A stretch of 39,258 nucleotides of DNA, from IMG/VR virus record IMGVR_UViG_3300032007_000195, one strand, 5' to 3'. Made by a program: the position numbers and the translations under genes. The DNA is from a virus. The notes below the pieces were generated by a model. That model was not told the DNA's origin and did not search any database. It worked only from the letters and a program-made list of their open reading frames with translations. Position 1 is the first letter of the stretch, and the number at the start of each line of letters is the position of its first letter. Below are positions 9,553 through 39,258 of this stretch, piece by piece.

Positions 9553-9553
9553 A

Positions 9554-10237: not shown

Positions 10238-10315
10238 AAACAAATATATTTTATTGTCCAAATATTATTATTTTATTTAATATATATTAACATATAGGTA
10301 TTGTATTGATACAAT

Positions 10316-11073: not shown

Positions 11074-11089
11074 CAAATCAAAAAATCCT

Positions 11090-12250
11090 ATGATTACAAC
11101 AGCAATTGTATTTGACCACAGAGGTAGGACAAAGAGAGGTGCAGAAGGACCCCTGGAAGTCCGGCTGACCATTGACCGTAAACCATACTATATTAATACA
11201 GGTGTGCGTGTGTACGCGAGGCAATGGGCCTTCGATAAGGTTGTAAACCATCCATGCGCTGACTCACTGAATGAGCGTCTGGCTATTATCCTTGATTCGG
11301 TGATGAGAGACATTAACTTCGCCCTGAAGCATCATACGGAGATAGATATTGTCAGACTTAAGCGTCATGCTTGGGGTTGCGCTCAGTCGGCCAACTTCAT
11401 TGAATGGATGCAGGAGGAGATTAAGATTCTGCGAGTGCGCGACATCAGGCACTATAATAGTGCACTTCGCAAGATCATAGAGTATGGCGGTATGCAAGAT
11501 TGGTCAGACGTAACACCAGAGAACATATACAAGTTGGATGCTTGGCTGCGCAAGCTACCAGGGCGCACGAATGGCAAAATATCTTCTGGCGGTGTATATA
11601 ACTACCACAAGTGTATTAAGGCGTTGCTGAGGCGCGCAGAGCGCACAGGATTGCTTGCAGCGAATCCGTATAACAAGCTCAATGGGGAATTTCAGAGAGG
11701 GGAGCAGGAGAACACCGAATACCTCACAGAAGATGAGATGAAGGCCATTATGGATTTTGCCCCCACCCCTGGCACTTGGTTGGCTAAGGCGCGCGACCTT
11801 TTTATCTTTCAAATGTGGACGGGCATGTCGTATGCAGATGCGCAGGCTTTCGACATCAAGGCCTATAAGAAAATTAATAATAAATGGCTTATCGTCAACT
11901 CTCGAATCAAGACAGGGCAACCGTTCGTCAATCAGTTGCTGCCGCCTGCGGTGGAGGTCTTGGAGCGGTATGAGATGTCGGTGCCTAAGATCAGCAACCA
12001 GGTGTACAACCGAGAGCTGAAGATTGTGGGTGCTGCGTGCGGATTGAACATCAAGCTGCACACGCATCTGGCAAGACATACATTCGCCACCTACATGCTG
12101 CGCAATGGCGTTCGTATGGAGAATGTGTCAAAGATGCTCGGGCATGCGTCCATTAAGCAGACGCAACGGTATGCGAAGGTTCTCGCTGAGAGCGTTCAAG
12201 AAGATTTTGATATGATAGATGCAAAGCTGAAAAGCAAAACAAAGCCCTGA
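11090..12250 (+). CDS. int: Tyrosine integrase (site-specific recombinase)
   Basis: The C-terminal HLARHTFATYML...LGHASIKQTQRYAKV carries the R..H..R..Y catalytic signature. The N-terminal MITTAIVFDHRGRTK...LEVRLTIDRKPYYINTG is typical of Bacteroidetes phage/ICE integrases. I placed the start at 11090. Confidence 0.9.
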   Translation: MITTAIVFDHRGRTKRGAEGPLEVRLTIDRKPYYINTGVRVYARQWAFDKVVNHPCADSLNERLAIILDSVMRDINFALKHHTEIDIVRLKRHAWGCAQSANFIEWMQEEIKILRVRDIRHYNSALRKIIEYGGMQDWSDVTPENIYKLDAWLRKLPGRTNGKISSGGVYNYHKCIKALLRRAERTGLLAANPYNKLNGEFQRGEQENTEYLTEDEMKAIMDFAPTPGTWLAKARDLFIFQMWTGMSYADAQAFDIKAYKKINNKWLIVNSRIKTGQPFVNQLLPPAVEVLERYEMSVPKISNQVYNRELKIVGAACGLNIKLHTHLARHTFATYMLRNGVRMENVSKMLGHASIKQTQRYAKVLAESVQEDFDMIDAKLKSKTKP

Positions 12251-16731: not shown

Positions 16732-18045
16732 TTATTTCTTAGGTTCTGGGTTTACCGTTGTAGGTCTGCCGCCAGAGTTTGACTCTTTTAATTTGGGGCT
16801 ACCTACCACACCAAGATTCATGCTCACATAGTGGTCGTCTCCGTCCTTGATATTGGGCAGATCGTACTGGCTGCGAATCTCGTTCACACTCCAACCGCTC
16901 TCCAAGTGCAGCTTGTCTATCTCTGCCTGGCCCTTCGCGTCGAGACGCTTCAATGCGAGCTCACAGACATGGATTCTCCTCTTTCCGAAATCCAATGGGG
17001 CAAGGAGCTTGCTGTTCAACTCGTCTTCATGTTCACGGATGCGGGGTTGAATAGTTCGCAGCAAGAATTCCTGCGTGGCATGCTCCGGCATTCGGTAATT
17101 GCCGCCACCGTCGCCAACAATGGCTATAATCTTGGGAACTCCCATCAGTCTGCATATTGCCTCGTCGCTATATCCTCTCTGTTCCAGGAGCTGGAGCTGC
17201 TGGGCAGTCTGGCTGATGATCTTCGCATCAGCCACATTGTCGAGGATAGCCACATCGTTGTTAATCCAGTCCTGCGCGAACTTATTACCAGCGTCTCTTA
17301 GTTCCTGTTGGTCGACACGGCCGCGAGTGCCAAATGTGGGGCTCTTCTGTTCTTGAACGAGAATCTTATGCTTACCGCCTTTTGCCATATCCTGGAGAGC
17401 CTGTTCGTCGCCAGTTGCAGCTATGGTTAAAGTCTTAAAGGCGTAGTCGATGGTTGGAATACCTTTGTACATTCCGTCATCCATGAACACATTTTTGAAA
17501 TGCAGAACATCCTCTGGTTGCGCAATCATATTGAAGCGAGGGCCATAGTTGGTATTGTACACCAAGTTGTAGGTATTATTCAGCTCGTTGTATCCGCCAC
17601 CTGTACACAGCCACAGGTTCTTAGGGTAGCCGTCGGCACCACGTTCGATGTACACATAGGCATTGCCGTAGTATATCTTATGCCACTCGATCTGTTCCTG
17701 CATCTGGCTTGCCGTCATGATAGGATTAGGGCGCACCTGCAACATGTAGTTCAGGATGCCGTTCTTGCCGTACCTGTCCTCAATGAAGTTGCCACCCTCT
17801 CCGTTCATTCGCTGATATTGCACAACCATCTGCCCCATCGTTTGCATGATCAGAGTCACACAGCGTGTCCAAGTTGGGATGAGAAGAGAGCTGCGACCAT
17901 AAGGCTTCACGATGTTGGCATCATAGTCGCCACCCTTCGGTGCGTGGTTGCTGGGGTCGTTGGGGTCCGTTGTCTTGGGAACTCCAGGCACAGTAACCTC
18001 TCGCTTGCCAAAGGCATGAACAATATTTGCAAAGAAATTATCCAT
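16732..18045 (-). CDS. Portal protein (HK97-family-like)
   Basis: 437 aa. Size and position are typical, upstream of protease and MCP. Confidence 0.8.
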   Translation of the reverse strand: MDNFFANIVHAFGKREVTVPGVPKTTDPNDPSNHAPKGGDYDANIVKPYGRSSLLIPTWTRCVTLIMQTMGQMVVQYQRMNGEGGNFIEDRYGKNGILNYMLQVRPNPIMTASQMQEQIEWHKIYYGNAYVYIERGADGYPKNLWLCTGGGYNELNNTYNLVYNTNYGPRFNMIAQPEDVLHFKNVFMDDGMYKGIPTIDYAFKTLTIAATGDEQALQDMAKGGKHKILVQEQKSPTFGTRGRVDQQELRDAGNKFAQDWINNDVAILDNVADAKIISQTAQQLQLLEQRGYSDEAICRLMGVPKIIAIVGDGGGNYRMPEHATQEFLLRTIQPRIREHEDELNSKLLAPLDFGKRRIHVCELALKRLDAKGQAEIDKLHLESGWSVNEIRSQYDLPNIKDGDDHYVSMNLGVVGSPKLKESNSGGRPTTVNPEPKK

Positions 18046-18087
18046 AGTTATTTCCGTTTTCTAATCCGTTAATTCGCCGGTATGGGT

Positions 18088-19524: not shown

Positions 19525-19911
19525 TTATTTTTTTTTAAATTCGTTCTTGTCGTCGTTGATAAGGAGCTGCATATTGAACTGCAAGGTATTGGCCTGCTTA
19601 TCCGGATGGAAGGTCTCGGGCATGATCTGATATGTCTGGCCCCGAAACACGATGCGGCTTCGAATATTAATCTGATTCGTCCAATTCATACGAACAAGCT
19701 CCACTCCGTAGGCATCAACAGCTCCGGCATTAAGAGCCGTCTTTCCTCTTGCCCATCCAACGTCAGCCCACAGGCTTGTTGTCTCTTCCCACTCAGCCCC
19801 AGAGCTGTCCACTCCATACTTACCGATCTTCGCCGCCTTGCGGTTCAGAACGATAATTCTGTATTTTCTCATTCCTGCTGAAAATCCCATAATTCTCTCT
19901 TTCTTAATCAC
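19525..19911 (-). CDS. Head-tail adaptor / head-closure protein (SPP1 gp16 / Phage_H_T_join-like)
   Basis: ...RIIVLNRK...WEETTSLWADV...VRMNWTNQINIRSRIVFRGQTYQI fits the typical pattern. The true start may be the internal ATG at 19890. Confidence 0.55.
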   Translation of the reverse strand: MIKKERIMGFSAGMRKYRIIVLNRKAAKIGKYGVDSSGAEWEETTSLWADVGWARGKTALNAGAVDAYGVELVRMNWTNQINIRSRIVFRGQTYQIMPETFHPDKQANTLQFNMQLLINDDKNEFKKK

Positions 19912-20174
19912 TTAAAGCAGAGTTATGGGTTTACCGAAAAAAAAATTCTGGAAGTTGGAGCCACGGCGATGGCGGCCTTTGAGTTTAGTGGCGAATCAAT
20001 ACAATTATGCTGGCCTTAAAGTGGAATACACAGGCAGTATGACACTGGGTCTGAATACGACATGGGATGACGCATTCCAGGGAACGCGGTAAGGCTATTA
20101 GATATGGAATAATACCAAACTATTAAGAAGTATTAGGATTTCGGCCAAAAGTATTATGCAACTATTATTAACAC

Positions 20175-20199
20175 AAAAAAGGGGAGGCGGCGACCTCCC
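20175..20199 (-). terminator. Intrinsic terminator ending the fibre/DGR transcription unit
   Basis: Minus strand reads GGGAGG-TCGCCG-CCTCCC, then C TTTTTT. Confidence 0.6.
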
Positions 20200-20342: not shown

Positions 20343-20606
20343 TTATACACCATCTTCGAACGAAGGTTTAGTGTCTTCTTTTGGCTCAATGGCTTCGAGG
20401 CGGGCGATTTCTGTCTGTGCAGCGTTGATGTCGTCGCGCCATTGCTGACGATCTGCTATCTTGTCGGCATACTCCTCCTTGGTGGCTGCACCCTCTGCTA
20501 TCTTGGCAGCGATATAGTCGGTACTTGATAGCCTTGCCTCTCTGTCGAGGATAATTGTCTGCTGAGCATTGATGAGCTCAATGATTTCTGACTTTTTCAT
20601 TTCCAT
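20343..20606 (-). CDS. Hypothetical coiled-coil protein (87 aa), weakly like a tail-fibre-assembly protein
   Basis: The start overlaps the RT stop (ATGGAAATGA). ...STDYIAAKIAEG...EYADKIADRQQWRDDIN resembles tail fibre assembly / XkdW-type motifs. The similarity is weak. Confidence 0.5.
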   Translation of the reverse strand: MEMKKSEIIELINAQQTIILDREARLSSTDYIAAKIAEGAATKEEYADKIADRQQWRDDINAAQTEIARLEAIEPKEDTKPSFEDGV

Positions 20607-21832
20607 TTCAGTTTTAATTTGTACTTCTTGTTTAATCTCTGGCGAAGTCCGTACTGAGGTTTACTGACTATACACTGACGGCGTTGGTCCCAATCCAACC
20701 ACTGCCACCACTCCTCGCCGATGGTGGCTTTCAGTTGCATAATGCGCTTGTAGGATGTGCGGTTCTTCAGTAGTCCTGTGTATGAGTTGACGGTTGAAAT
20801 AAAACGGTCGAGCTCTCTGTATTTCTCGACCTCGGCAAGTTGGTTGTATTCGTGTATTCTGGCGATACATCGAGACCATGTGGCATCATTCAATATAATG
20901 CTCCACGGGTGTATATGACTGCCCAGAAATTCAAGGCCCTTCCAATGTTGCTGACAATAAAATTTCCTATCGTTCATCTTTACGCCCTTTGCAGCCAGTC
21001 TCCTGCGCAGTTCGGGCAGTAGACTGAGGGCGTAGGCTTTCAGTTGGTCTGATACCACCATTGTCCCGTCATCCATAAATACCGTGGTGCGGATTCCACA
21101 CTCGTTATTCAGCCACGCCACCTCGTCGTTGATATACAATCCCATTCCTGTCTGTGATGTCATGCGGCCGATAGGCACTCCTATGCCGTCTGGCTTATTC
21201 AAGATTGATTTCTCCGGCTTTATATGCCGCTCCCATAGGTATTTCGGTGTGCGTCTTTCGTAATGCTTTGCAGGACAGCAATGGATAGTGACCATTGACA
21301 ACCACTTTAGAAACGACGGCATCCACTCGCCGTACTGCGCGGCTATTTCGTCCTGATAATTGTCAATAACGCGGTCGAATTCATACTCCATGTAGGTGCA
21401 GTCAGCATTCGGAAAGAATCCCGCTAAGTCCCACTTGATTATCCATGCCGTCTGCGTGTAACCTTGCGAAACCTCGAATATATCTTCTATCACCTGATTT
21501 ATTGCCGCTTGCGAGCCCATACCTTCGCGGTTGTTGAATGTACGAGGGTGCAGTGTCCGCTCGATATACGGCTTCAATGTGTCGCATAATAAATGGTCGG
21601 CTAACCGACCAGCGAACTCTGTTGCGAATATCTCGCGCCATTTAGGTATGGAAGTAAGGAAGGTGTAGTTGTGGAGTATGCGGAATGTTCTTTCCGTGAG
21701 CTCGTACATCATACGAACAAGCAGCGGTGGCCAATTTACTTCAAAGGCCATTGAGTCGCGCCCGTAACGCTTGTTTCTCCTGGTGGAGAACATCAGGTCG
21801 AGCAACATCGAAAAGAACGATACATCAGTCAT
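20597..21832 (-). CDS. DGR reverse transcriptase
   Basis: IKWDLAGFFPN (motif with catalytic D), GVPIGRMTSQ (the DGR hallmark IGxxxSQ) and VFMDDGTMV (YxDD box). The gene lies directly 3' of the TR. I placed the start at MTDVSFF (21832), because the track's extension overlaps the TR. Confidence 0.88.
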   Translation of the reverse strand: MTDVSFFSMLLDLMFSTRRNKRYGRDSMAFEVNWPPLLVRMMYELTERTFRILHNYTFLTSIPKWREIFATEFAGRLADHLLCDTLKPYIERTLHPRTFNNREGMGSQAAINQVIEDIFEVSQGYTQTAWIIKWDLAGFFPNADCTYMEYEFDRVIDNYQDEIAAQYGEWMPSFLKWLSMVTIHCCPAKHYERRTPKYLWERHIKPEKSILNKPDGIGVPIGRMTSQTGMGLYINDEVAWLNNECGIRTTVFMDDGTMVVSDQLKAYALSLLPELRRRLAAKGVKMNDRKFYCQQHWKGLEFLGSHIHPWSIILNDATWSRCIARIHEYNQLAEVEKYRELDRFISTVNSYTGLLKNRTSYKRIMQLKATIGEEWWQWLDWDQRRQCIVSKPQYGLRQRLNKKYKLKLKWK

Positions 21833-21863
21833 AGATAAAAGCGCAATACAGCGAATACAGGTA

Positions 21864-21988
21864 AAATCGCGACCGCCTGACAACGATTCGCGTTATTGAC
21901 GTTGTTGTTGTTGAGTTTGCCGTTGTTGCCGTTGAAGATCCAAGCGTTGTTGACGTTGTACCTCTGGGCAAACCACCGGTTCGTACTG
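21864..21988 (-). repeat. DGR template repeat (TR)
   Basis: About 125 nt, homologous to 22565-22688 and 37874-37998. On the minus strand it is rich in AAC codons (...AACAACAACAACGTCAATAAC...). All differences from both VRs are at TR adenines. Confidence 0.9.
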
Positions 21989-22067: not shown

Positions 22068-22484
22068 TCATTGCTGACCGACCTGCGGCTGCTCCTGACG
22101 TTTAAGCGACCGTGCCACATTTCTCCACTTCCTGACACCTTCCTCTATTCTTTCTAACTGCATAGCGATACTCAGTTTATCCTTATCTGTCAGGAGCCCT
22201 TGTACAATACAAAGCTCGAAGTTTGCCAACAATATACCGAACTCACCAAACATTTCGCGGATGCGCTCCTGTCGTACTTCCTGGCACTCCTTGGCGATGG
22301 CAAAGTGGCGTATGATGTTCTGCACCGCCCGCTTCATCTCTACCGGCGCACCTTCGATACGATCTATCTTTGGCATCCGCTGAATGGCTGGGTGCAGGAT
22401 ATAAAGCAGGTTCTTTGCGTCGGCCAGAATCGAGTCTTTGTCGTTGTGCGCCTTATGCCCGCGTGGTTTCTTGTGTTCGTTCAT
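22068..22484 (-). CDS. avd: DGR accessory variability determinant (Avd-like four-helix-bundle protein)
   Basis: 138 aa, basic and helical. ...RMPKIDRIEGAPVEMKRAVQNIIRHFAIA resembles the fPK.eRy.L motif of Avd / 23S-IVS proteins. The gene sits between the target and the TR. Confidence 0.7.
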   Translation of the reverse strand: MNEHKKPRGHKAHNDKDSILADAKNLLYILHPAIQRMPKIDRIEGAPVEMKRAVQNIIRHFAIAKECQEVRQERIREMFGEFGILLANFELCIVQGLLTDKDKLSIAMQLERIEEGVRKWRNVARSLKRQEQPQVGQQ

Positions 22485-22506
22485 TATTTACTTGAAGTAC
22501 AAGGGC

Positions 22507-22535
22507 CTCACGTCACGCTTTTGCGATGACGTGAG
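22507..22535 (-). promoter_or_regulatory. Hairpin/cruciform about 30 nt 3' of VR1 (DGR target-recognition element)
   Basis: Minus strand reads CTCACGTCA-T-CGC-AAAA-GCG-TGACGTGAG: a 9-bp stem, a 1-nt bulge, a 3-bp stem and a tetraloop. Confidence 0.6.
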
Positions 22536-22550
22536 AGCCTATATTAAGAG

Positions 22551-23870
22551 TTAATCAATTTTCAAAAGCGCGACCGCCTGACAACGAAGCGCGTAATAGA
22601 CGTAGCTGGCGTAGAGTTTGCCGTTGAGGCCGTTGAAGAACCAAGCGTTGTAGACGTTGTACCTCTGGGCAAACCACCGGTACGTACTATTGTTAATTGC
22701 GGTAGTTCCCATCTTGGTGACTGATGGCGCGAGAGTGTCGATGCAATCGTCTTTCATCAGCTCAGTGCCCTCCAATACGCCTGGCAAATGGAAATCGCCC
22801 GCATTCAGTCCCACAACACCATACGAGCGGTTGTAGCCGTAGTTTAGTGCAGGGAATTTGGCCTTTGTGCCGCCGTCCTTGGTCGGAGCCGTCTTGTTTG
22901 CATACAGCCTACCAAGCTCTGCACCGTCTGGCAGCGAGAAGCAGCCATACTTCTGCGGACATACGACCATGTAGCACTTCTCCAGATACTCCTCGTAGGT
23001 CTTGTAGGCGGAGCGAAGGTCGGCACAATACTCTGATGTCTCGAATGCAGACGGACGCACTGGTTCGCTGTTACCGGCCTGCGGTCCTACTGGCTCGTTG
23101 GCTGACGGCACACGAGCGTTATTGGTTGCCCACGCTTTTGTGCGATCAATGTTCATCACGCCCCAATAGTTAGTGTAGAAGCCACGCTCTCCGCGCCAGT
23201 AGGCAGAGTTCTCTGGCATGGTGCCCCAAGTGATGTGCGCGATGGTACATCCAGTCGCGCTGACGTTGTAGAAACGATAGTCTACGCAGGTGTCACACTG
23301 AATGATGATTTGCGTGCCGCCACTTTCCACCTTGTTGCCCTCGGCATCTGCCAGGTAAGCCCACCATGCCTTAGTATCTCCAACCTCTGCTGCCTTTGCT
23401 TCCACGGCAGCGGAAATCTCGGCAGCACTCGTCGCGTCGATGGTGGCAGATGTCAGCGTCACGTCCACGGTGGTGTCAACGGAATAGTCTGGACTCATGC
23501 GCAGTTTAATAGCCAGCGTGGCGCTACTGATGGCAGTGATGGCATACTGGCATACGTCGAGATATTTCAGGTCGGCTGTGTTCTTGTCAATCACGCCCAC
23601 CTGACGACCTTTACGCAGATAGACGTATCCAACATGCACCCATGCGCTGGGGATGATAGCTTTTTGAATCCATGAGCCGCCCTTAACGTAGGCGACTTCG
23701 TTAGACTCGTTCAGGAACACCAGGTCGCCAACTGCGGGGCTTGTCGTGATGACGTTAACACCGTCAACTATAATCTCGCGTGTAGTCTCTATCAGGGATA
23801 CCTGACTCTCTATGGTTGGCTTAACTGCTGCATCGTATGCAGTCTTGTTAGCATAAGATTTTATTGCCAT
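22551..23870 (-). CDS. DGR target protein 1: tail-fibre-module protein with a C-terminal lectin-like (DUF1566/CLec-type) variable domain
   Basis: 439 aa. The C-terminus ...STYRWFAQRYNVYNAWFFNGLNGKLYASYVYYALRCQAVALLKID is encoded by VR1. The gene follows the tail fibre gene. Confidence 0.85.
   Translation of the reverse strand: MAIKSYANKTAYDAAVKPTIESQVSLIETTREIIVDGVNVITTSPAVGDLVFLNESNEVAYVKGGSWIQKAIIPSAWVHVGYVYLRKGRQVGVIDKNTADLKYLDVCQYAITAISSATLAIKLRMSPDYSVDTTVDVTLTSATIDATSAAEISAAVEAKAAEVGDTKAWWAYLADAEGNKVESGGTQIIIQCDTCVDYRFYNVSATGCTIAHITWGTMPENSAYWRGERGFYTNYWGVMNIDRTKAWATNNARVPSANEPVGPQAGNSEPVRPSAFETSEYCADLRSAYKTYEEYLEKCYMVVCPQKYGCFSLPDGAELGRLYANKTAPTKDGGTKAKFPALNYGYNRSYGVVGLNAGDFHLPGVLEGTELMKDDCIDTLAPSVTKMGTTAINNSTYRWFAQRYNVYNAWFFNGLNGKLYASYVYYALRCQAVALLKID
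22565..22688 (-). repeat. DGR variable repeat 1 (VR1)
   Basis: Hand alignment to the TR at an offset of 701 nt shows about 15 mismatches, all at TR plus-strand T (coding-strand A). Confidence 0.88.
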
Positions 23871-23890: not shown

Positions 23891-25729
23891 TTAGTTAATC
23901 AAAACCCAATCGCTCACGGAATTTGTCACGCTGAATGCGGTGTATTCCTTCTTATTGGTGGTGTCGAGATACTTCTGGCCGATGAATGCCGGCACGTTAG
24001 GTGCTGATGGTGCACCGGCACCGTAAACAATCATCGGGTAGTTCTGCACTTTGGGTATGTCTTCCGAATTAATGCAGACGGCGCGAGTCTCGCCCAGATT
24101 GTCCAACTGCGCCTTCAGGCCCTCTATCTCACCGAGGAGCTGTGCGAAGGCCTGAGCGATAACGGCCTGACCAGGAGCACCGATGAAGTTGGTGGCAATA
24201 TTCTTGAAGATACCAAGGCCAACCACCAGAGCTACACCGCCACTCACCGTAGCCGTGTAACCGCTGACCACAACGGTCATGGCCGTTGGACAGAGATAGA
24301 CGTAATAGCCGGTGCTTGGCATTGCGGCCACAGCCTGCTTCATTAGAGGCTCGTAGTAGCTCTCTGTCACATCGCGTGTGGCAGGCAGTGTGGCGTAGGT
24401 CTGACCACCCATTACCCAACCTGTGAGGACAGGAGTATCGCCGCTCTCATCGTACTGAGCAGTGTAGATCAGCGCGGGGTTGTAGTCGGCAGTAGCCGTT
24501 GCGGGCAGCTCTGGGTAGTCCTGGCGATAGGTGTAGGCGTAGGTGATCACCTTGTCGTAAGTCCTTGTAACGATGCGGGCAAAGAGGCTCACGTCGGCAG
24601 GAACTGCGCTCGCACTCGGCACTAACAGGATGTCGCCTGCGTTCAGGTTTACCTCCTCGCTGATACCGTAGCCGCTCGCGCTGACCTCCTGACCGTTCAC
24701 GTTGACATACTTTCCCGCCGTTGCCTGCTGAAGGGTGATGCTGCGCGTATTGTTGTACTTGCCAAGGCCCTGTTCCAAGAATTGCACCCTGCCATTCGTG
24801 GCGGAGAACTTTTCGTCCACCTCTGTCTTGTTGTAGTAGCTCGCAAGAGCGGCGGTGATGTCTGCCTGAATAGCTGCCTCCATCTGAGAGGTGGTGCTGT
24901 AATCGCTGAGAGCGGAGCTGATGGCTGTTGCAATCAGTTCTACCAATCCCTGAGAGGTGGGCAGCGCGTCCAACTTAGCCTTAAGAGCCGTGGTGAAGTC
25001 CTCGGTAGAGAGCTGCTTGCCCGTTACCTTGTTTACCTTCTCGCTGAGCATCTGATTGATGGCCGTGGCGTTGTAGTAATTGGTAAGGGCAGCGGTGATG
25101 GCATTCTGGATGGCGATGGCGGTGGCATCCGTGGTGCTATAAGGGGCGAGTGCGGTGGTGATAGCCGACTGCACCTGCGAACTGGTAACAAAGCCTGCCA
25201 CTGCTGCGGTAATTAGTGCCTGAACCTGACTTTGGTTTAATTTTGTACCCAATGCTTCATTGAGAGCAAGGTCAGCAGTCTCGCGTGCCAGACGCTCTGC
25301 GGCGATGTCGGCAGCCATACCTGCCGAAGCATTAATAGCAGCCTGCACGCTCGCGTTGAGGTCGGCAAGTGGAATGCCGGTACCTGGCTTCTGGTATGCC
25401 GTGCCAGCGGCATCCAAAAGGTTCTGTACTGCCGTGGCAAGGTCAGTCTTGGGTATTCCGGTACCTGGCTTCTGGTATGCCGTGCCAGCGGCATCCAAAA
25501 GGTTCTGTACTGCCGTGGCAAGGTCAGTCTTGGGTATTCCGGTACCTGGCTTCTGGTATGCCGTCAAAGCCTTCTCAATGGCTGATTGCAAAGCCGATGT
25601 GAGGTCGGAATCAGGAATACCACCATCTGGTTTAGTGTACTTCAGCAGCACCTCCGCTGCCAAATCGGGCACTTGGTTCAAGATATTCTGAACCTCTGCG
25701 CCAGTCTGTGTTAGTCTATAATCTGCCAT
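23891..25729 (-). CDS. Tail fibre protein
   Basis: 612 aa. Ala/Thr/Gln-rich repeats (YQKPGTGIPKTDLATAVQNLLDAAGTA, VTGKQLSTEDFTTALKAKLDAL) and a C-terminal GAGAPS...FIGQKYLDTTNKKEY motif are typical of phage fibres. Confidence 0.75.
   Translation of the reverse strand: MADYRLTQTGAEVQNILNQVPDLAAEVLLKYTKPDGGIPDSDLTSALQSAIEKALTAYQKPGTGIPKTDLATAVQNLLDAAGTAYQKPGTGIPKTDLATAVQNLLDAAGTAYQKPGTGIPLADLNASVQAAINASAGMAADIAAERLARETADLALNEALGTKLNQSQVQALITAAVAGFVTSSQVQSAITTALAPYSTTDATAIAIQNAITAALTNYYNATAINQMLSEKVNKVTGKQLSTEDFTTALKAKLDALPTSQGLVELIATAISSALSDYSTTSQMEAAIQADITAALASYYNKTEVDEKFSATNGRVQFLEQGLGKYNNTRSITLQQATAGKYVNVNGQEVSASGYGISEEVNLNAGDILLVPSASAVPADVSLFARIVTRTYDKVITYAYTYRQDYPELPATATADYNPALIYTAQYDESGDTPVLTGWVMGGQTYATLPATRDVTESYYEPLMKQAVAAMPSTGYYVYLCPTAMTVVVSGYTATVSGGVALVVGLGIFKNIATNFIGAPGQAVIAQAFAQLLGEIEGLKAQLDNLGETRAVCINSEDIPKVQNYPMIVYGAGAPSAPNVPAFIGQKYLDTTNKKEYTAFSVTNSVSDWVLIN
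25377..25564 (-). repeat. In-frame 81-bp tandem repeat (2 perfect units plus 26 nt) inside the tail fibre gene
   Basis: Units 25377-25457 and 25458-25538 are identical base for base. Each encodes the 27-aa unit YQKPGTGIPKTDLATAVQNLLDAAGTA. Confidence 0.95.
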
Positions 25730-26736: not shown

Positions 26737-27369
26737 CTACTGAGATACCGTGACGTTGCATGTCGCATAGATACCGCTACCGTCGGCTGCTTGGCAGGTG
26801 ATAACACAAGCGCCTGGCGATATGCCGCGAATGGTCCCATCCTTTACCTGTGCAACAGCTCCGTTACTGGTCGCCCAGATGAGCTTCTTGATAGTAGCGG
26901 TGGCCGGTGTAATGGTGGCCGTTATTAAGCCGGTGGCATTCACCCTGACAGATACTGTTGCAGCCGACAAGGTGATAGCCGTTATTGGCGTTGGCGGGGC
27001 AAGAGGGCCATTGCCTCTGAAGGATATACTGCCCTTGCTCAGGCTTGCACGCTCTGCCTTAATGTCTGCCTGTGTGCACAGGGCTCTTCCTATCAGCTTG
27101 GGGACAACAGATGTACGACCTCCATAGATTCCGATATTGTAGAAGTTACCGGCTATGAGCAGGTGGCTGATGTCGTCAAAGTCGCCGACAAGAAAATCGG
27201 TACTGAACGACCATCTTTTGCGTCCAGATAGGATTTCCTCCCAGTCGGCTGTATTGGGCGAGCTGATGTCAACGGCTGCTGCCTCTGTGTGTATGCTGTC
27301 AGCTTTCGTGCAAGCGAATGGCGCCGCGTTACCGTCCAAGCTTATAAAAATATTGTTACCGTTCTGCAT
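26737..27369 (-). CDS. Major tail (tube) protein with a C-terminal Ig-like (Big_2) domain
   Basis: The N-terminal half has the tube-like pattern (...DISSPNTADWEEILSGRKRWSFSTDF...SFRGNGPL). The C-terminus ITAITLSAATVSVRVNATGLITATITPATATIKKLIWATSNGAVAQVKDGTIRGISPGACVITC is Big_2-like. Confidence 0.6.
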   Translation of the reverse strand: MQNGNNIFISLDGNAAPFACTKADSIHTEAAAVDISSPNTADWEEILSGRKRWSFSTDFLVGDFDDISHLLIAGNFYNIGIYGGRTSVVPKLIGRALCTQADIKAERASLSKGSISFRGNGPLAPPTPITAITLSAATVSVRVNATGLITATITPATATIKKLIWATSNGAVAQVKDGTIRGISPGACVITCQAADGSGIYATCNVTVSQ

Positions 27370-33792: not shown

Positions 33793-34308
33793 TTAGATTC
33801 TGCTCCATCCTTCGTCTGTGATGAAGTAACCGTACTCGTGAGCCATGTTGCGGTTGTGGCATTCGATGATTCCTTCTATCTCCAGCCAGGCAATAGCCTT
33901 GCAAAACTCTCTGTACTGAAGTTCCAAACCCTGATTGCGGATGATCATGTCGGTGGTGTGAGCACCCTGAATGATTGCGTTTATAACCTTCTGGGCGATT
34001 GACTTGTCGACTGATTTGCTCTTCAGGGTTATTTCTTCCCATCCGTAGCTGTCGCAGTAGAAGTACTTTCCGTCTATCATAACCACGTCCGATGTGCTAA
34101 GTGAGCGACCCTTGTACTCTGATGGGCGACGGCCAACATTGAAAGCCGTGTAAATGTCGTCGAGGTCTGCATCATCCTCAATCTCGCCTGTGAATACTTC
34201 GTTGTAGTCTTCCTTCGTTGGCATGATGTTGTTTTCTGTCACGAAATCGAGACTCATGAATGTTGCTTTGTTCTCTGCTGGAAGCTGGAAAATTGTGAAA
34301 GTCTTCAT
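33793..34308 (-). CDS. YodL-like N-terminal domain protein with a putative winged-helix C-terminus
   Basis: FTIFQLPAEN...YNEVFTGEI...LDDIYTAFNVGRRPSEYKGRSLSTSDVVMI matches my recollection of the YodL-like pattern. This is a by-eye call. Confidence 0.4.
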   Translation of the reverse strand: MKTFTIFQLPAENKATFMSLDFVTENNIMPTKEDYNEVFTGEIEDDADLDDIYTAFNVGRRPSEYKGRSLSTSDVVMIDGKYFYCDSYGWEEITLKSKSVDKSIAQKVINAIIQGAHTTDMIIRNQGLELQYREFCKAIAWLEIEGIIECHNRNMAHEYGYFITDEGWSRI

Positions 34309-34830: not shown

Positions 34831-35499
34831 CTATATATTGATGTATTCTGGTATGCAGTCATAGCAAGGACAGCTCTTAATTCGTTCCCACGGCTCGATG
34901 CAACCGTTTCCGTTCAGATCGGGAGAGAAGTCCCGATGTCCCTTTATCCTGGCCGTCGGGTATGCTGCCCTGAGCATCTTAAGCAGGCTGACGAGCGATG
35001 CCTTCTGGTTGGGTGTTCGGGTGTCGGCAGGGTTGCCCTTGGCATCTAAGCCACCAACATAGCAGACGCCTATGCTGTGGGCATTATGTCCGCTTACGTG
35101 AGCCCCGATGAGGTCAACATCGCGCCCCTTCTCTATCCTTCCATCCAGGCGAATCAGATAGTGATACCCAATGTCTGACCACCCAAGGGCCTTGTGCATC
35201 CTGCGCACGTCTGCCACCGTCAGGTCCTTGCCGTATTCGCTGGCAGTGCAATGGATGACAATATCTGTTATCTGGCGTCGTGACTTCTTTATGCTGAATT
35301 TTGCGGCAAGCAGCTTTGCGATGGTGGCGGGGCCAACAATGCCGTCGTCTGCCAATCCGTTCTCGCGCTGGAAGGATTTGACCGCTTCCTCTGTGATGGG
35401 GCCAAATATTCCGTCGGGGATAACGCCCAATCCTGCATTGCGCAGGGCCTCCTGGATGCGCTGCACCATTATGCCGGATGAACCTCTTTTGTATGTCAT
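34831..35499 (-). CDS. Endolysin: PG_binding_1 domain plus N-acetylmuramoyl-L-alanine amidase (Amidase_2/PGRP)
   Basis: VQRIQEALRNAGL...DGIFGPITEEAVKSFQRENGLADDGIVGPAT is the peptidoglycan-binding repeat. IVIHCTASEYG...GYHYLIRLDGRIEKGR...GAHVSGHN is the amidase_2 signature. Confidence 0.9.
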   Translation of the reverse strand: MTYKRGSSGIMVQRIQEALRNAGLGVIPDGIFGPITEEAVKSFQRENGLADDGIVGPATIAKLLAAKFSIKKSRRQITDIVIHCTASEYGKDLTVADVRRMHKALGWSDIGYHYLIRLDGRIEKGRDVDLIGAHVSGHNAHSIGVCYVGGLDAKGNPADTRTPNQKASLVSLLKMLRAAYPTARIKGHRDFSPDLNGNGCIEPWERIKSCPCYDCIPEYINI

Positions 35500-35906: not shown

Positions 35907-36054
35907 TCACATGAAACAAACATTCCAAAAATCTCCCTATGAAATCACAAACGGGAAGAGGGGGTTCCCGTGTACGGTGCTGCTTGGCTTATCCCCGATT
36001 GGGCCTTCCCTCTCCCTTATTATGCAAAAGATGCTGATTGGTATGGTGAGCTGC

Positions 36055-36228
36055 TTATTCTGGCTTGGTGAACAGTGTACAGATTTCAATGATAGCAGTA
36101 CCTGCCACCACGATGGCCGAGTTAATCTCTGTGGCGTGTTCTGTGCAGGTGGCGGTAACGATTGCCACTGCTGCTGTCTGTAAGGCTCCTACGATGCCGG
36201 ATACCAGGGCGAATACTTTCTTGCTCAT
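36055..36228 (-). CDS. Small hydrophobic protein (57 aa), holin/antiholin-like (below the ORF-track cutoff)
   Basis: Hand translation gives MSKKVFALVSGIVGALQTAAVAIVTATCTEHATEINSAIVVAGTAIIEICTLFTKPE*. The ORF follows the u-spanin gene. Confidence 0.45.
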   Translation of the reverse strand: MSKKVFALVSGIVGALQTAAVAIVTATCTEHATEINSAIVVAGTAIIEICTLFTKPE

Positions 36229-36233
36229 TTTTT

Positions 36234-36665
36234 TTATGGTTTTAGTTTAACATATAACTTCATAGCTCCGTAGATTGCGGCAATGCCTAATATTGCCATC
36301 ATGATGTTGCCCAGGTTGAGCCGTAGTTTCTGCCACCAGGTGAGGGGTTTATCTATATACTCGGGTACAGGGTAAGGCTTCGGGATGGTGTCTGTCTTGC
36401 TGATATAGGTTGTATCATGCACCAGCTTCTCCTTGTACTTCGTATGCCATTTCTCCACAAGGACGGTATCGCCATTATCGTGTATATACGTCGAGTCGTG
36501 CAGCCATACCGAATCCTTCTGTAGCTTTGTCTGTATCAGCGTGTCGGTGTGGTATTCCGGCACCGTAACATACTTCGTGGTCGTGCAGCCGGTGAGCAAC
36601 CAGACAAGGATAGTTGCATAAGCTACCAGATAAAATACAATATTCTTACTATTCATATTCTTCAC
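36234..36665 (-). CDS. Unimolecular spanin candidate (N-terminal lipoprotein signal plus C-terminal transmembrane anchor)
   Basis: Lipobox LLTGC after a hydrophobic signal (IVFYLVAYATILVW). The C-terminal transmembrane segment is NIMMAILGIAAIYGAMKLYV. The architecture matches phage T1 gp11. Confidence 0.55.
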   Translation of the reverse strand: MKNMNSKNIVFYLVAYATILVWLLTGCTTTKYVTVPEYHTDTLIQTKLQKDSVWLHDSTYIHDNGDTVLVEKWHTKYKEKLVHDTTYISKTDTIPKPYPVPEYIDKPLTWWQKLRLNLGNIMMAILGIAAIYGAMKLYVKLKP

Positions 36666-36687
36666 TCTTCATTCTTCATTCTTCATT
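36657..36687 (-). repeat. 31-nt element, copy B; exact copy of 4939-4969
   Basis: The 31-mers are identical. This copy ends at the ATG of the u-spanin gene and contains the stop of the 36676-36822 ORF. Confidence 0.9.
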
Positions 36688-36822
36688 CTGCTTAGGGTTT
36701 ACCCTTCCCCACTCCGCGAAGTGCTGAGCCAACAGCAGGCTCCCACATTCGGGGTTGTGCTGGAACTCGTCGCTTTCCACGAATCTCTTCCATTCCTCAA
36801 TGACTGCTTTCTCTGCTTTCAT
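36676..36822 (-). CDS. Micro-ORF (48 aa)
   Basis: MKAEKAVIEEWKRFVESDEFQHNPECGSLLLAQHFAEWGRVNPKQNEE*. The start abuts the previous stop (TAAATG). Confidence 0.35.
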   Translation of the reverse strand: MKAEKAVIEEWKRFVESDEFQHNPECGSLLLAQHFAEWGRVNPKQNEE

Positions 36823-36963
36823 TTATCTCTCTCCTTTCTCGTCGAGGCATCCGTTTTCGCCAATGAGGAGAGCACACCCCTGGCAGTGTGCACTCTCCTT
36901 AATCTCGTAGGTGATGCCGACCAACTTGAACTTCTCACCAACCTTGTGTTCATTGTATGTCAT
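36823..36963 (-). CDS. Micro-ORF (46 aa, CxxC...C)
   Basis: MTYNEHKVGEKFKLVGITYEIKESAHCQGCALLIGENGCLDEKGER*. Confidence 0.35.
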   Translation of the reverse strand: MTYNEHKVGEKFKLVGITYEIKESAHCQGCALLIGENGCLDEKGER

Positions 36964-37031
36964 GATGCCTTTGCCAGTTTTTTGCGTTTGATGGCATTGT
37001 GTTTATTCTTACCAGATCGTGCCAGATACAT

Positions 37032-37145
37032 TCAGTATTCTTCTGCTTTCACGCCATAAGGAACATACTTGCCGAATACTCTGTCACCTTCTTCCCATCT
37101 GCACTTGATGAGGTTTGATTTTCTGTTCACACTTAAGATTCTCAT
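37032..37145 (-). CDS. Micro-ORF (37 aa)
   Basis: MRILSVNRKSNLIKCRWEEGDRVFGKYVPYGVKAEEY*. It is followed by a 23-codon ORF coupled through TGAATG and ATGA overlaps. Confidence 0.25.
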   Translation of the reverse strand: MRILSVNRKSNLIKCRWEEGDRVFGKYVPYGVKAEEY

Positions 37146-37218
37146 AATTGATGATTTTTGATTGTTAATAAGTATTGTTGAGTAATTGTTAAGTAATCTT
37201 TGTACATTTCTTTGGCGG

Positions 37219-37743
37219 TTAGCCCTGCGCAGTACTCTCTAACTTGATTCGCTCTTCGAGAACTTCCACATACTCAATCATCAGGCTGTACTGACTTTCC
37301 ATGAGCACCTTCTTGCGGTCTGGCAGACCTTTGAAGATGGGTGTTGAGAAGAACATGTTGAGCTTCTCGATCTTGTCTTTCAACTCCTCGCACTCGTTTA
37401 CCATTCGGCCAACGTATGAGTCTGCGCCCTGAGTTAGTCGCCAATCGTCGGCCATGATGTCCTCCCATGTTGGGATGTAATACGTGGCGCGAGCTGGTGT
37501 CTTTTCGTCGTCCTTGAACTCGATGATTAGTACCTGGTGGTGGTACTCAATCTCGCCAGAGCCGACGGTGCTAATCTTTGGCTTCACGATGTCCTGTACT
37601 GAGGTCATCTTCGGCACGATGTCCTTAGCGATACGCTGAGGAATCTGCATCATGATTTCCTTATCTCCGTTTACGTCCCATGCCATGCGCTGGGCAGTGC
37701 CTCCATTCTTTAGGCACTCAATGACTTCTGCAAATTTTGCCAT
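37219..37743 (-). CDS. DUF2829 (Tad2-like) domain protein with a C-terminal helical extension
   Basis: FAEVIECLKNGGTAQRMAWDVNGDKEIMMQIP ... ATYYIPTWEDIMADDWRL matches the DUF2829 pattern (f.eAl.alk.Gk...R..W......i.lq ... w.ps..Dl.a.DW.i). This is a by-eye call. Confidence 0.55.
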   Translation of the reverse strand: MAKFAEVIECLKNGGTAQRMAWDVNGDKEIMMQIPQRIAKDIVPKMTSVQDIVKPKISTVGSGEIEYHHQVLIIEFKDDEKTPARATYYIPTWEDIMADDWRLTQGADSYVGRMVNECEELKDKIEKLNMFFSTPIFKGLPDRKKVLMESQYSLMIEYVEVLEERIKLESTAQG

Positions 37744-37799
37744 AGTTACTTTTGATTTTGATTGTTAAAATTAAACAGCCCCGCTGGTAGCAGGCTATG

Positions 37800-37830
37800 G
37801 CAGCGGGTAGCTTCGCAGCATACCCGCTGC
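37800..37830 (-). promoter_or_regulatory. Hairpin/cruciform about 43 nt 3' of VR2, with the same architecture as the VR1 hairpin
   Basis: Minus strand reads GCAGCGGGTA-T-GCT-GCGA-AGC-TACCCGCTGC: a 10-bp stem, a 1-nt bulge, a 3-bp stem and a tetraloop. Confidence 0.6.
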
Positions 37831-37859
37831 AAGGTTTAATACGCTACGCTTCGCTTCGC

Positions 37860-38513
37860 TTATTCGGGATTCCAAAGCGCGACCGCCTGACAACGATACG
37901 CGCTATTGACGTAGTAGTAGTAGAGCCTGCCGCTGTAGCCGCTGAAGAGCCAAGCGCTGCCGACGCTGTACCTCTGGGCAAACCACCGGTACGCACTGAA
38001 ATCAATTTTCTTAGCACCGGCAAGGCTAAGTGCCATGTTTAGGTTTTTCCTATGGCAATACATAGCCAAGAATACAGGGATGGTAGGCAGATAGTGGCCT
38101 TCCTTCAGCTCGAATGCGAGACCAAGTTGCTTTAGGTACTCTGTCTCACCCTTGAAGTCCCAATTTAGCAGGGCGTCCACCTCGTTGAGGCAATGCTCAT
38201 CCTCGGGGTATTCATCCTCCTTCAGAAGGCGTTGTTCGCCGTAGTCATGATCGAGTGGCACACCGAATGTATGACCATCGTATGCTATGCCTATCATAGC
38301 CACGTCATCCATAAGGTTCTCCCCGTCAAATTCCTCGTAACTGCCATCCTTGTGTACAACGTACACACCATTCTCGATTGGCATAACACCAACAATGGTT
38401 GTCTTGATACCATCCTGAGGCTTCAAATTCCTGCGTGCAAAGTCCAAAGCCTCTTGCGCCTTGCTTCCGAATCTCTCGTAAACGGAAAGCAACTCTTCCA
38501 TATTCATTTCCAT
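37860..38513 (-). CDS. DGR target protein 2: small stand-alone lectin-like (DUF1566/CLec-type) protein
   Basis: 217 aa. ...GHYLPTIPVFLAMYCHRKNLN...FSAYRWFAQRYSVGSAWLFSGYSGRLYYYYVNSAYRCQAVALWNPE. The last roughly 40 aa are encoded by VR2. Confidence 0.85.
   Translation of the reverse strand: MEMNMEELLSVYERFGSKAQEALDFARRNLKPQDGIKTTIVGVMPIENGVYVVHKDGSYEEFDGENLMDDVAMIGIAYDGHTFGVPLDHDYGEQRLLKEDEYPEDEHCLNEVDALLNWDFKGETEYLKQLGLAFELKEGHYLPTIPVFLAMYCHRKNLNMALSLAGAKKIDFSAYRWFAQRYSVGSAWLFSGYSGRLYYYYVNSAYRCQAVALWNPE
37874..37998 (-). repeat. DGR variable repeat 2 (VR2), remote from the TR
   Basis: Hand alignment to the TR at an offset of 16010 nt shows about 19 mismatches, all at TR plus-strand T (coding-strand A). 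Confidence 0.88.
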
Positions 38514-38554
38514 ATTTACTTTTGTTTAATTCTACAATTCTCAAATTCTTGATA

Positions 38555-38585
38555 AAGATAAGAGAGCCGACATACATCAGCCCTG
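38555..38585 (-). terminator. Terminator-like hairpin after the 38590-38991 gene (sequence relative of the 881-910 hairpin)
   Basis: Minus strand reads AGGGCTGAT-GTAT-GTCGGCTCT followed by C TTATCTTTAT. The T-run is weaker. Confidence 0.45.
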
Positions 38586-38589
38586 CTTG

Positions 38590-38991
38590 TCATATTTCAG
38601 TCATTCTGTACTTTTTGTGCCAATTAATTATTGCCCGGATGTTCCCCATTTGTCCCGCCTTGCCGCTTACATTCGTACCACCAATATATTCGCCGGTGGG
38701 GGAATAAACGGATATGCGAGGATGTTCGCCCGTCAAATCAGAAATGGCATGGTAGCCGGATTCGTCACGATAGGCAAGCAAGTGAAAAAGGTCCGTCTCG
38801 GGGAAGCTGACAGGATAAATCATTGTAGCCTCCTCCACACAGCTATATGGCATCGGCGGTTTAAAGGTCTCCAGCACACCTATATGAGGCGAGAACCCGC
38901 ACTGGCAATGCCATACGGGTTCATGCCGAGATGCCAGCGTCGGAGTGAAGACCCAATGCCGGCAAAACTTACAATCAGGTTTCATGTTCAA
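38590..38991 (-). CDS. Hypothetical protein (133 aa), Cys/His-rich N-terminus
   Basis: Track ORF. Contains CKFCRHW...HCQC. No family recognised. Confidence 0.6.
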   Translation of the reverse strand: MNMKPDCKFCRHWVFTPTLASRHEPVWHCQCGFSPHIGVLETFKPPMPYSCVEEATMIYPVSFPETDLFHLLAYRDESGYHAISDLTGEHPRISVYSPTGEYIGGTNVSGKAGQMGNIRAIINWHKKYRMTEI

Positions 38992-39005
38992 TGCTTAGAA
39001 TAATG

Positions 39006-39258
39006 TTAGTTGGGCCTGCTCTGCCTTGATGCGTCGCACGGCACTGGCTTCTCCATCGCTTTCGTAATGGTCGCCATCAGCGTCTCTTGGTCTTGCTTCG
39101 TGATGACTATCTCCGCATCGTTGATGATGGCCGAGTGCTTGCGGCGATAGTTGAACACCTTGCGTCCCCACTTCGTCTTGCAATACGGGTCTCGCTTGTC
39201 GGCCTTTTTCATCTTGCGGGGCATCTTGCCGATGGGTCGCTCAATCTTTACGTTCACC
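39006..39258 (-). CDS. 3' part of the junction-spanning hypothetical gene (see 1-342)
   Basis: The track ORF is open to the window edge. Its apparent start codon is an edge artefact; the real ATG is at 342 in the duplicated copy. Confidence 0.6.
   Translation of the reverse strand, partial: VNVKIERPIGKMPRKMKKADKRDPYCKTKWGRKVFNYRRKHSAIINDAEIVITKQDQETLMATITKAMEKPVPCDASRQSRPN
39132..39258. repeat. Terminal direct repeat, copy 2; identical to 1-127
   Basis: Same comparison as copy 1. Confidence 0.95.

Follow-up and report, generated by a model that had tools for sequence, protein, structure and literature searches.

Can a phage with a single diversity-generating retroelement (DGR) rewrite a second gene that lies far from the DGR cassette, and what would it gain from diversifying a protein outside its tail fibre? 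These questions are raised by a 39,258-nt stretch of viral DNA, IMG/VR record IMGVR_UViG_3300032007_000195, which was analysed at its full length and is called the window below. An open reading frame (ORF) of 217 residues at positions 37860-38513 on the minus strand, named target 2 here, ends in a copy of the repeat of the DGR, which also serves a cassette-borne gene, target 1. Target 2 is very probably a genuine and currently used second target of the element, reached by trans-acting retrohoming from one template repeat (TR) into two sites that are each marked by a sequence resembling the initiation of mutagenic homing (IMH) element and by a hairpin. The anatomy of the sequence, the adenine-only pattern of differences, the conservation, the diversification at the population level, and the fold are seen directly, whereas the steps of retrohoming are modelled on the paradigm of phage BPP-1.

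The genome holds one DGR, which is located on the minus strand and has the canonical components: target 1 with its variable repeat (VR1), the accessory variability determinant (Avd), the TR, and the reverse transcriptase (RT). The RT gene (20597-21832, minus strand) encodes 411 residues from the ATG at 21832 and matches Pfam family RVT_1 (E 1.6e-9) and phrog_1423 (E 7.5e-35). Its translation carries the DGR signature IGRMTSQ and the motif FMDD, which fit the pattern of DGR-clade RTs ([LIV]GxxxSQ and a YxDD-type motif). The Avd gene (22068-22484, minus strand, 138 residues) matches phrog_3206, "Avd protein of DGR" (E 1.1e-5), and has no match in Pfam or NCBIfam. The TR, identified with a repeat finder, is 125 nt long (21863-21987, minus strand) and has 39 adenines in its 124-nt core. 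In the reading frame of the VRs it contains twelve AAC codons, two AAT codons, and one codon each of AAA, ATC, and ACG. The gene of target 1 (22551-23870, minus strand, 439 residues) adjoins the cassette directly downstream of a tail protein gene, and its end is formed by VR1 (22564-22688, minus strand), which is 88% identical to the TR.

The repeat finder resolved three in-register copies of the 125-nt element, namely the TR, VR1, and a remote variable repeat, VR2 (37873-37997, minus strand). VR2 is 84% identical to the TR and comprises codons 173-213 of target 2. All 19 mismatches between the TR and VR2 in the 124-nt core are at adenines of the TR (hypergeometric p 6e-12), and the same applies to all 15 mismatches between the TR and VR1 (p 3e-9). 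The adenine-only relationship of both VRs to the same TR supports the original prediction, made from the letters of the window, that one RT and one TR service two loci. The remote location of VR2 was also correctly recognized, but its separation from the TR, predicted to be 15.9 kb, measures 16,010 bp from start to start. VR2 forms the 3' end of a protein-coding gene, and its TR is AAC-rich in that frame. Sixteen codons of VR2 are changed relative to the TR, mostly into those of Tyr, Ser, and Gly. The scaffold YRWFAQRY..AW.F.G..G.LY..RCQAVAL, which had been proposed to be common to the two targets, is present in both. The likeness of the two proteins is limited to their last 57 residues, as is expected if the shared TR keeps the VRs alike and the remaining parts of the genes are unrelated. 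A scan of the window with the non-adenine positions of the TR returned exactly three copies of the element, and thus no third VR was found in the genome by this approach. A gene-conversion origin of VR2 from VR1 was ruled out, since the two VRs differ from each other at most of the variable codons and each of them is adenine-only relative to the TR.

The predicted conserved GC-rich 3' end was found as a 17-nt block, GTTGTCAGGCGGTCGCG, that is identical in the TR, VR1, and VR2, and the three sequences diverge past the next base. At this base, the last one of the GC-rich element GTTGTCAGGCGGTCGCGC (37877-37894, minus strand) that forms the IMH-like 3' end of VR2, the TR has A and both VRs have C. 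Among the relatives of the phage, the corresponding base is A in 19 of 19 TRs, and C in 21 of 22 VRs, with T in the remaining one. In contrast, a truly mutagenised adenine nearby is represented in the same relatives by C in eight cases, G in three, T in seven, and A in four. The fixation of the A of TRs and the C of VRs across the relatives argues for a difference of the IMH*/IMH type, as the original prediction had suggested, and against random mutagenesis of an adenine. The end base can therefore be regarded as a fixed IMH*/IMH-type difference.

The DNA downstream of both VRs is predicted to fold into hairpins. The hairpin located approximately 42 nt downstream of VR2 (37800-37830, minus strand) has a 10-bp stem that continues, beyond a 1-nt bulge, into a 3-bp stem closed by a 4-nt loop with the sequence GCGA. 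The one approximately 25 nt downstream of VR1 (22504-22539, minus strand) is of the same design, with stems of about 10 and 3 bp separated by a 1-nt bulge and closed by the 4-nt loop AAAA, and its folding energy is -18.5 kcal/mol (z -6.65). No comparable hairpin was found in the DNA fold downstream of the TR (-3.4 kcal/mol, z -0.74). The VR2 hairpin is kept in the relatives, with 92.8% of cells paired, compared to 21.6-49.5% in slid controls, and two of its pairs exhibit compensatory changes. In phage BPP-1, what turns a sequence into a recipient is the IMH together with a hairpin or cruciform (Guo et al. 2011, PMC3240598). The occurrence of hairpins after both VRs, and not after the TR, agrees with this rule by analogy, and the structure at 37800-37830 is a candidate DGR target-recognition hairpin or cruciform.

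Several properties of the hairpins speak against this assignment. The corresponding hairpins of other phages have GC-rich stems of 7-10 bp, 4-nt GRNA loops, and a spacing of 4-34 bp (Guo et al. 2011, PMC3240598). However, neither the GCGA nor the AAAA loop conforms to the GRNA consensus, and the VR2 hairpin lies about 42 nt past the end of the homology, so that the feature is present in form, but not in detail. Furthermore, the covariation of the VR2 hairpin is weak, as it was evaluated in eight sequences. A second small hairpin followed by a run of T residues (37780-37794, minus strand), detected by a consensus scan and DNA folding, looks like a terminator after target 2, and the VR2 hairpin could be a mere part of such a terminator.

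The remote target is conserved. A protein search identified 28 homologues of target 2 with sequence identities of 44-100%, and the ORF is intact in all of them. The first approximately 170 residues are highly conserved in the alignment, whereas the last 40 vary at fixed positions on the scaffold RWFA.RY.V..AW.F.G....L....V..A. In the 16 closest homologues, the N-terminal part of about 170 residues is approximately 92% identical, whereas the identity of the VR-coded segment is approximately 52%. Far from being invariant, the VR segment is the most variable part of the gene in the 28 homologues, and the variation is at adenine-derived codons. The ratio of non-synonymous to synonymous substitution rates (dN/dS) relative to four relatives is 0.12-0.22 outside of the VR, indicative of purifying selection, and 0.8-1.3 inside it. 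The N-terminal conservation and the low dN/dS outside of the VR indicate that the gene of target 2 is functional and not decaying. None of the outcomes that the original prediction had named as refuting it was observed.

In several lineages, the VR of the remote target matches its own TR at the non-adenine positions. VR2 of the window has zero non-adenine mismatches to its own TR, and at least four to the TR of any relative. The VR2 of relative L006 differs from an L011-type TR at 16 adenine and zero non-adenine positions. In record IMGVR_UViG_3300021387_000703, the VR1-type and remote copies are positioned 16.7 kb apart on one contig, and both are adenine-only, within the TR-homologous core, relative to a TR located on a second contig from the same sample. 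In relative L058, in which the target protein is 58% identical to target 2, the TR lies just upstream of the RT at 443-563, on the same contig as the remote VR (10549-10669) and 10.1 kb from it, and all 15 mismatches between the two are at adenines. The pairing of a TR and VR2 on the same contig was thus reached in part, by an 18-mer scan of IMG/VR and in L058, and the search for RT homologues yielded no contig in common with those of the target homologues. The TRs of the RT relatives (L011-L035) differ at 5-12 non-adenine positions, and the VR1 copies follow them, with zero to three non-adenine mismatches to their own TR. Two full-length relatives, with genomes of 39,266 and 41,399 bp, do not contain a third exact copy of the 18-nt IMH-like block, and some relatives may lack the remote target.

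A tblastn search against annotated phages matched Bacteroides phages Bacuni_F1, F2, and F4, isolates of which provide a view of the remote target over short times. The remote-target genes of F1 and F2 differ at 16 sites, all of which are inside the VR and 15 of which correspond to adenines of the TR. The confinement of the differences to the remote VR indicates that it was rewritten on a laboratory or enrichment time scale. Between F1 and F4, in contrast, the remote-target gene shows no difference. The host of F1 is also that of F2, whereas F4, in which the adjacent VR is different, infects another strain. The remote VR does not track the host range in this small panel.

It is conceivable that VR2 is a fossil, left behind by an earlier duplication or retrohoming event and no longer rewritten, in an ORF that is kept for other reasons or is decaying. 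Such an explanation is favoured by the VR2 hairpin, which is further from the end of its VR than the VR1 hairpin. In the window's own population, ongoing mutagenesis is read indirectly from differences between assemblies, which also weighs against the reading of VR2 as a currently used target. However, at the non-adenine positions VR2 agrees throughout with its own TR, even though the TRs of the relatives are not the same, the variation of the homologues is concentrated at adenine-derived codons of the VR, and 15 adenine sites of the homologous remote VR are changed between Bacuni isolates F1 and F2. The intact ORFs, the selection acting outside of the VR, and the conservation of the IMH-like end and hairpin also disagree with a relic. 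The fossil explanation is therefore highly improbable.

Following the BPP-1 paradigm, the TR would be transcribed, and the RT with Avd would produce complementary DNA while misreading adenines. The complementary DNA would replace the homologous VR at either of the two sites, VR1 by the cassette or VR2 16 kb away, which would be recognized as recipients by the same GC-rich IMH-like end and the downstream DNA hairpin. The TR, which has neither the VR-type end base nor the hairpin, would act as a donor only. Rewriting of VR2 could affect up to 17 codons, those twelve AAC, two AAT, AAA, ATC, and ACG codons of the TR, of which the 16 mentioned above are changed in this genome. The rewritten codons would belong to the beta-strands at the C-terminus of this small, soluble C-type-lectin-like protein, and could provide it with a variable ligand-binding surface rich in Tyr, Ser, and Gly.

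The structure of target 2 was predicted using AlphaFold2 in two runs, one with a 29-sequence alignment, which resulted in a predicted local distance difference test score (pLDDT) of 78.5, and one with an 81-sequence alignment of the family, for which the pLDDT was 94.7. The model contains an N-terminal helix (residues 5-29), which was predicted with confidence, a low-confidence linker (approximately residues 30-47), and one compact alpha/beta domain with a C-type-lectin-like fold (residues 48-217). The last five strands of the domain (176-213) are encoded by VR2. The ORF map and the fold are in agreement with the description of VR2, in the original prediction, as the C-terminus of a small stand-alone lectin-like ORF outside of the fibre module. 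The best match in a Foldseek search of the PDB was BACOVA_04982 (4EPS; probability 1.00, E 1.2e-3, template modelling score 0.53), followed by the C-terminal domain of Legionella Lcl (8Q4E), and then by many C-type lectin-like proteins, including those of snakes. In a search of viral models (BFVD), the best match was a 228-residue DUF1566 protein of a crAss-like phage (E 2.5e-8). A deep profile of the family reaches both 4EPS (1.3e-6) and 8Q4E (3.9e-5) by sequence, whereas a search of the PDB sequences with a shallow alignment of target 2 homologues retrieved nothing.

Target 2 is predicted to be a divergent DUF1566/Lcl_C-like C-type-lectin-like domain with just a helix in front of it. An exhaustive profile search recovered 306 clusters (50% identity), of which 126 have E<=1e-10. 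With few exceptions the members are 170-260 residues long, and the match extends to their C-terminus. Pfam Lcl_C (PF07603) was matched by 40 of 81 family members at E<=0.01, with the best E-value of 3.2e-8. These comparisons place target 2 in a conserved family of stand-alone DUF1566/Lcl_C-like proteins of about 170-260 residues from Bacteroidales phages. Two results weigh against the family assignment. When six of the Lcl_C matches were re-scanned singly, their scores of 16-31 bits were below the gathering cut-off of 34.9, and the 217-residue protein itself has no match in Pfam; it has none in PHROGs, NCBIfam, or PADLOC either.

The N-terminal part of target 2 was searched for the means of attachment to a virion, as the original prediction had proposed, and contains the helix but no known virion-docking domain detectable in Pfam or PHROGs. 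The N-terminus, MEMNMEELLSVYERFGSKAQ, is acidic and helical, and no signal sequence or membrane segment was found by inspection. BLAST comparisons of the N-terminal 47 residues and of residues 48-172 to all ORFs of the genome did not reveal a shared docking module. The homologues start at M1, M3, or M5, and in some of them the N-terminal part is absent or replaced. Pfam searches of ten N-terminally extended family members for an informative fusion partner gave only weak coiled-coil or DUF matches. DUF3310 was matched in two of the 81 family members, and a relaxed Pfam scan of the N-terminus of target 2 for this domain found nothing.

The layout with two targets, one of which is remote, is not new, and the novelty implied by the original prediction was overstated. 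Non-adjacent targets were reported for 45 of 372 DGRs and are common in phage DGRs, and the smallest targets are formed by the C-type lectin fold alone (Wu et al. 2018, PMC5758913). Like the phage DGRs of that survey, the window has an adjacent target and another one elsewhere in the same phage or prophage, within 50 kb, with A-to-N differences only; the family of target 2 and its gene context were not covered there. The closest published counterpart is the "distant" DGR target of the Bacuni phages, described as "ORF 43" with VR1 (Hedzet et al. 2021, PMC8143477), which corresponds to GenBank gene Bacuni_F1_00026. Target 2 is 31% identical to the 224-residue Bacuni_F1_00026 over 188 residues (E 2e-24), essentially over the full length and including the helix region; the BLASTP match is also given as residues 19-199. 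In Bacuni_F1, as in the window, one RT and TR serve an adjacent and a non-adjacent target, and the remote VR is 12.6 kb from the TR. The remote target of Bacuni is of similar size, has a C-terminal VR, is located outside of the tail module, and is diversified between isolates. A GC-rich 7-bp hairpin with a 4-nt loop is positioned downstream of its VR, and VR2 is likewise followed by a hairpin with a 4-nt loop. In contrast, the TR and VR sequences differ, as does the C-terminal scaffold (..RVRPVSAF in Bacuni and ..RCQAVAL in the window). The neighbours are also different, DNA polymerase A and a methyltransferase in Bacuni, and TerL, Tad2-like, and lysis genes in the window. The two genomes are unrelated at the DNA level, with no megablast match. 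Judged by homology, size, C-terminal VR, and its 16 kb distance from the TR, target 2 can be classified as a small remote DGR target of the Bacuni type.

Similar proteins have been described in other contexts. The second targets nd12_tgt2 and nd4_tgt2 of small gut myophages are small C-type-lectin-like proteins, and the role of mutagenising two different genes was called unclear (Baykov et al. 2023, PMC10743442). They resemble target 2, by description and not by sequence, in their size and fold, the position of the VR at the 3' end, and an N-terminal alpha-helical motif that is present in some relatives and absent in others. Unlike target 2, they are encoded inside the DGR cassette, their helix is DUF3310-like, and their hosts are probably Firmicutes. 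Target 2 is not one of the tentaclins of the same study, as its VR is C-terminal and its AlphaFold2 model does not contain an Ig-like domain. BACOVA_04982, the fimbrial-tip-like variable protein that together with the Lcl C-terminal domain is the best structural and profile match of the lectin-like domain, is a DGR target of Bacteroides ovatus identified in human stool metagenomes, as cited by Hedzet et al. (PMC8143477). However, the 4EPS chain has 497-510 residues, and the match covers its C-terminal residues 262-502 only, with 12% identity. Target 2 is not a type V pilus tip adhesin like BACOVA_04982, a class marked by a lipoprotein signal and N-terminal pilin domains, as it has neither an upstream domain of this type nor, by inspection, a signal sequence. 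Target 2 shares with Mtd of BPP-1 the C-terminal VR in a C-type lectin fold and the GC-rich IMH end with TR-specific differences, and with the BPP-1 target site, in form, the hairpin with its 4-nt loop, which in the window follows the two VRs and not the TR. Unlike in BPP-1, the loop is not GRNA here, and the target of BPP-1 is single and adjacent. Mtd, with 381 residues, attaches to the tail fibre by beta-prism and beta-sandwich domains (PMC10743442). Target 2 is not a tail-fibre tip protein of this kind, since its model has one helix and a linker before the lectin-like domain.

The gene of target 2 is surrounded by accessory genes. It adjoins a gene (37219-37743, minus strand) that encodes a fusion of Tad2-like (PF11195, anti-Thoeris family) and crAss001_48/"Sequestin" (PF21825) domains according to Pfam, and is a candidate anti-defence gene. 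This gene type recurs in relative L002 (9304-9834). The other neighbour, ORF 38590-38991, has no family match, and the amidase gene (34831-35499) marks the lysis side, so that the neighbours are those originally described. In the group of phages to which the window belongs, target 2 is always located between TerL and the amidase, amid highly variable cargo that includes Tad2-like/Sequestin, Bro-N/ANT, HU, DNA methyltransferases, an SNF2-methylase, Band_7, and an acyl-carrier-like protein. The accessory character of the neighbourhood, as originally claimed, is thus correct locally. However, late genes flank the block in the window, with lysis and tail genes downstream and, on the far side of the circular junction, TerL and a weak match to a gp6-like connector upstream, and expression other than late is not proven by the neighbourhood. 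Bacteroidetes promoter motif TTTG-N17-23-TAnnTTTG was not found upstream of target 2, and a sigma-70 scan was uninformative, so that no promoter of its own was detected. With late genes on both sides and no promoter found, position alone cannot decide the timing of expression. The sole full matches to the Bacteroidetes motif in the window, which are not above chance (two compared to 0.84 expected), are at 10230-10262 (minus strand), at the head of the minus-strand early block and divergent from the integrase-side genes, and at 20146-20177 (minus strand), after the DGR and before the head genes.

The gene is located differently in other lineages, but never in the tail module in those examined. 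In L058, the homologue is part of a rightward operon next to a CI-like repressor, and in L065 a single gene separates it from a divergent HTH_3/Peptidase_S24 repressor. In Bacuni, it is positioned between the two genes named above. The 151-kb crAss-like phage csAssE-Sib (OR575929; L064 8680-9516) encodes a 278-residue, 29%-identical member, annotated as "DUF3988 domain-containing protein", amid small early and replication genes. The DNA encoding the C-terminus of this member has no second copy in the csAssE-Sib genome, that is, no TR-like repeat. The member is therefore not a DGR target, and diversification by a DGR is not a property of the whole family. In L058, the gene that directly precedes the remote-target homologue contains a long in-frame tandem array of ten 18-nt units (9445-9710), and a gene near the end of that locus contains eight 24-nt units (17768-18055), also in frame.

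The original prediction rightly left the function of target 2 open, and we lean towards an auxiliary binder that is not an integral subunit of the tail fibre. It is quite possible, although short of probable, that target 2 is a virion-borne or released receptor-binding or adhesion protein, such as a detachable tip adaptor or a decoration protein, which docks by its N-terminal helix and widens or tunes adsorption beside target 1. The scaffold of its VR and its lectin fold are shared with tail-associated DGR targets, and the targets of viral DGRs are mostly tail proteins (PMC8144416). The architecture of a confident helix, flexible linker, and binding domain fits this role, and, in the manner of modular receptor-binding proteins, the homologues have swapped or lack N-terminal parts. 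Late genes surround the gene in the window, and host binding was favoured by the authors of the Bacuni and nd12 papers (PMC8143477, PMC10743442). However, the gene is never in the tail module: the Bacuni homologue lies between PolA and a methyltransferase, those of L058 and L065 lie right after a CI-type switch, and that of csAssE-Sib is in an early or replication region. The N-terminus is unlike any other protein of the genome and contains no known docking domain. Furthermore, F1 and F2 differ in the remote VR despite sharing a host, whereas F1 and F4 are identical there and infect different hosts. The position of the gene, between TerL and the lysis and tail genes here, and in replication or immediate-early regions in other lineages, is ambiguous and weighs against any firm choice of role.

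More tentatively, target 2 may act inside the cell as a diversified binder of variable proteins of the host or of competitors, for example in counter-defence or takeover, with early or accessory expression. The failure to find a signal peptide or membrane segment by inspection is compatible with this role, as are the repeated occurrence of the gene in early, replication, or accessory regions and, in the window group, a cargo hotspot with Tad2-like/Sequestin, methyltransferases, Bro-N/ANT, and HU. Differences in the remote VR do not track the host range in Bacuni. DUF3310, matched in two of 81 family members, is known from SaV, an early protein of a lactococcal phage and interaction partner of AbiV (PMC8306868), and cytoplasmic C-type-lectin-like sensors diversified by DGRs have been proposed in bacteria (PMC10907252). 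In contrast, the intracellular reading relies on guilt by association and has no phage precedent. Target 2 has no match in PADLOC or NCBIfam and no DUF3310 signal, is flanked by late genes, and has no Bacteroidetes-type promoter of its own. The remaining, smaller share of likelihood is left to roles other than these two. The more specific proposal that the whole family consists of non-virion cytoplasmic binders diversified in trans, acting as hypermutating counter-defence or takeover factors, is unlikely. It is based on the position of the gene next to CI-type switches, replication genes, methyltransferases, and Tad2-like genes in four lineages, the lack of a signal peptide, the host-range data of Bacuni, and the DUF3310 matches. 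If it were true, the phage could keep recognising variable intracellular proteins of the host or of rival phages.

With target 2 as its second target, the window is a clean and fully annotated case of a phage DGR that acts on two genes, one of them at a distance, and agrees with the view that recipient sites are marked by an IMH-like end and a hairpin after it, irrespective of their place in the genome. The modest added value of the analysis is that the remote target is one of a sizeable family of small C-type-lectin-like proteins that stand alone, the 306 clusters mentioned above, and that phages with diverged TRs have retained this family as a remote DGR target. Why a phage should diversify another protein besides the fibre is acknowledged to be an open question (PMC10743442), which may be addressed by experiment, because a homologue is encoded by the Bacuni phages, which can be cultivated.

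The assembly of the window represents the whole genome, circularly permuted or terminally redundant, of a temperate siphophage. Bases 1-127 are repeated exactly at 39132-39258, which corresponds to a unit length of 39,131 bp. Megablast of positions 36000-39131 against annotated phages yielded no match, and no prophage copy was confirmed in the 185,579 reference genomes scanned. The host is probably a member of Bacteroidales, judging from the relatives, which are Bacteroides phages and include one RT homologue labelled Tidjanibacter; the phage is one of the gut or rumen. Nearly all genes are on the minus strand, and the map obtained from PHROG and Pfam scans has an integrase on the plus strand (11030-12250). 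The early block with single-stranded DNA-binding protein and primase genes extends from 9552 down to 5802, TerL is located at 1707-3683, and the weak match to a gp6-like connector at 924-1220. A run of small genes that includes target 2 continues across the circular junction, which is spanned by an ORF from 39006 to 441 in wrapped coordinates. The map continues with the amidase identified by PHROG, large unannotated ORFs between the amidase and the tail genes, the major tail protein with an immunoglobulin domain (26737-27369), the tail protein directly upstream of target 1 (23891-25729), the DGR cassette, and the genes for the portal, protease, and major capsid protein (from 18045 down to 14787).

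The order of the modules is unusual. TerL and the weak gp6-like connector are separated from the portal, protease, and capsid genes (portal side 16732-18045) by approximately 15-24 kb, depending on the direction round the circle, and cargo genes, lysis and tail genes, and the DGR are located in between. A YodL-like protein (PF14191, E 3.3e-18) is encoded at 33793-34308 (minus strand), between the lysis cassette and the large ORFs of the tail region. The tail protein gene at 23891-25729 (minus strand) contains three tandem repeats of 81 nt, or 27 residues, at 25371-25613 (100%, 98%, and 63% identity), and another pair of 45-nt repeats at 24830 and 25070. This repetitive, fibre-like segment is possibly variable in length. 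The 52-kb relative L060 contains purine-rich arrays of 14-nt units of the GAGGGAAGA/GATGTAAGA type in intergenic positions (583-729, 1556-1709, and 19611-19674), and a repeated leader motif, AAAACAATTACGACTATG, ahead of many of its small genes.

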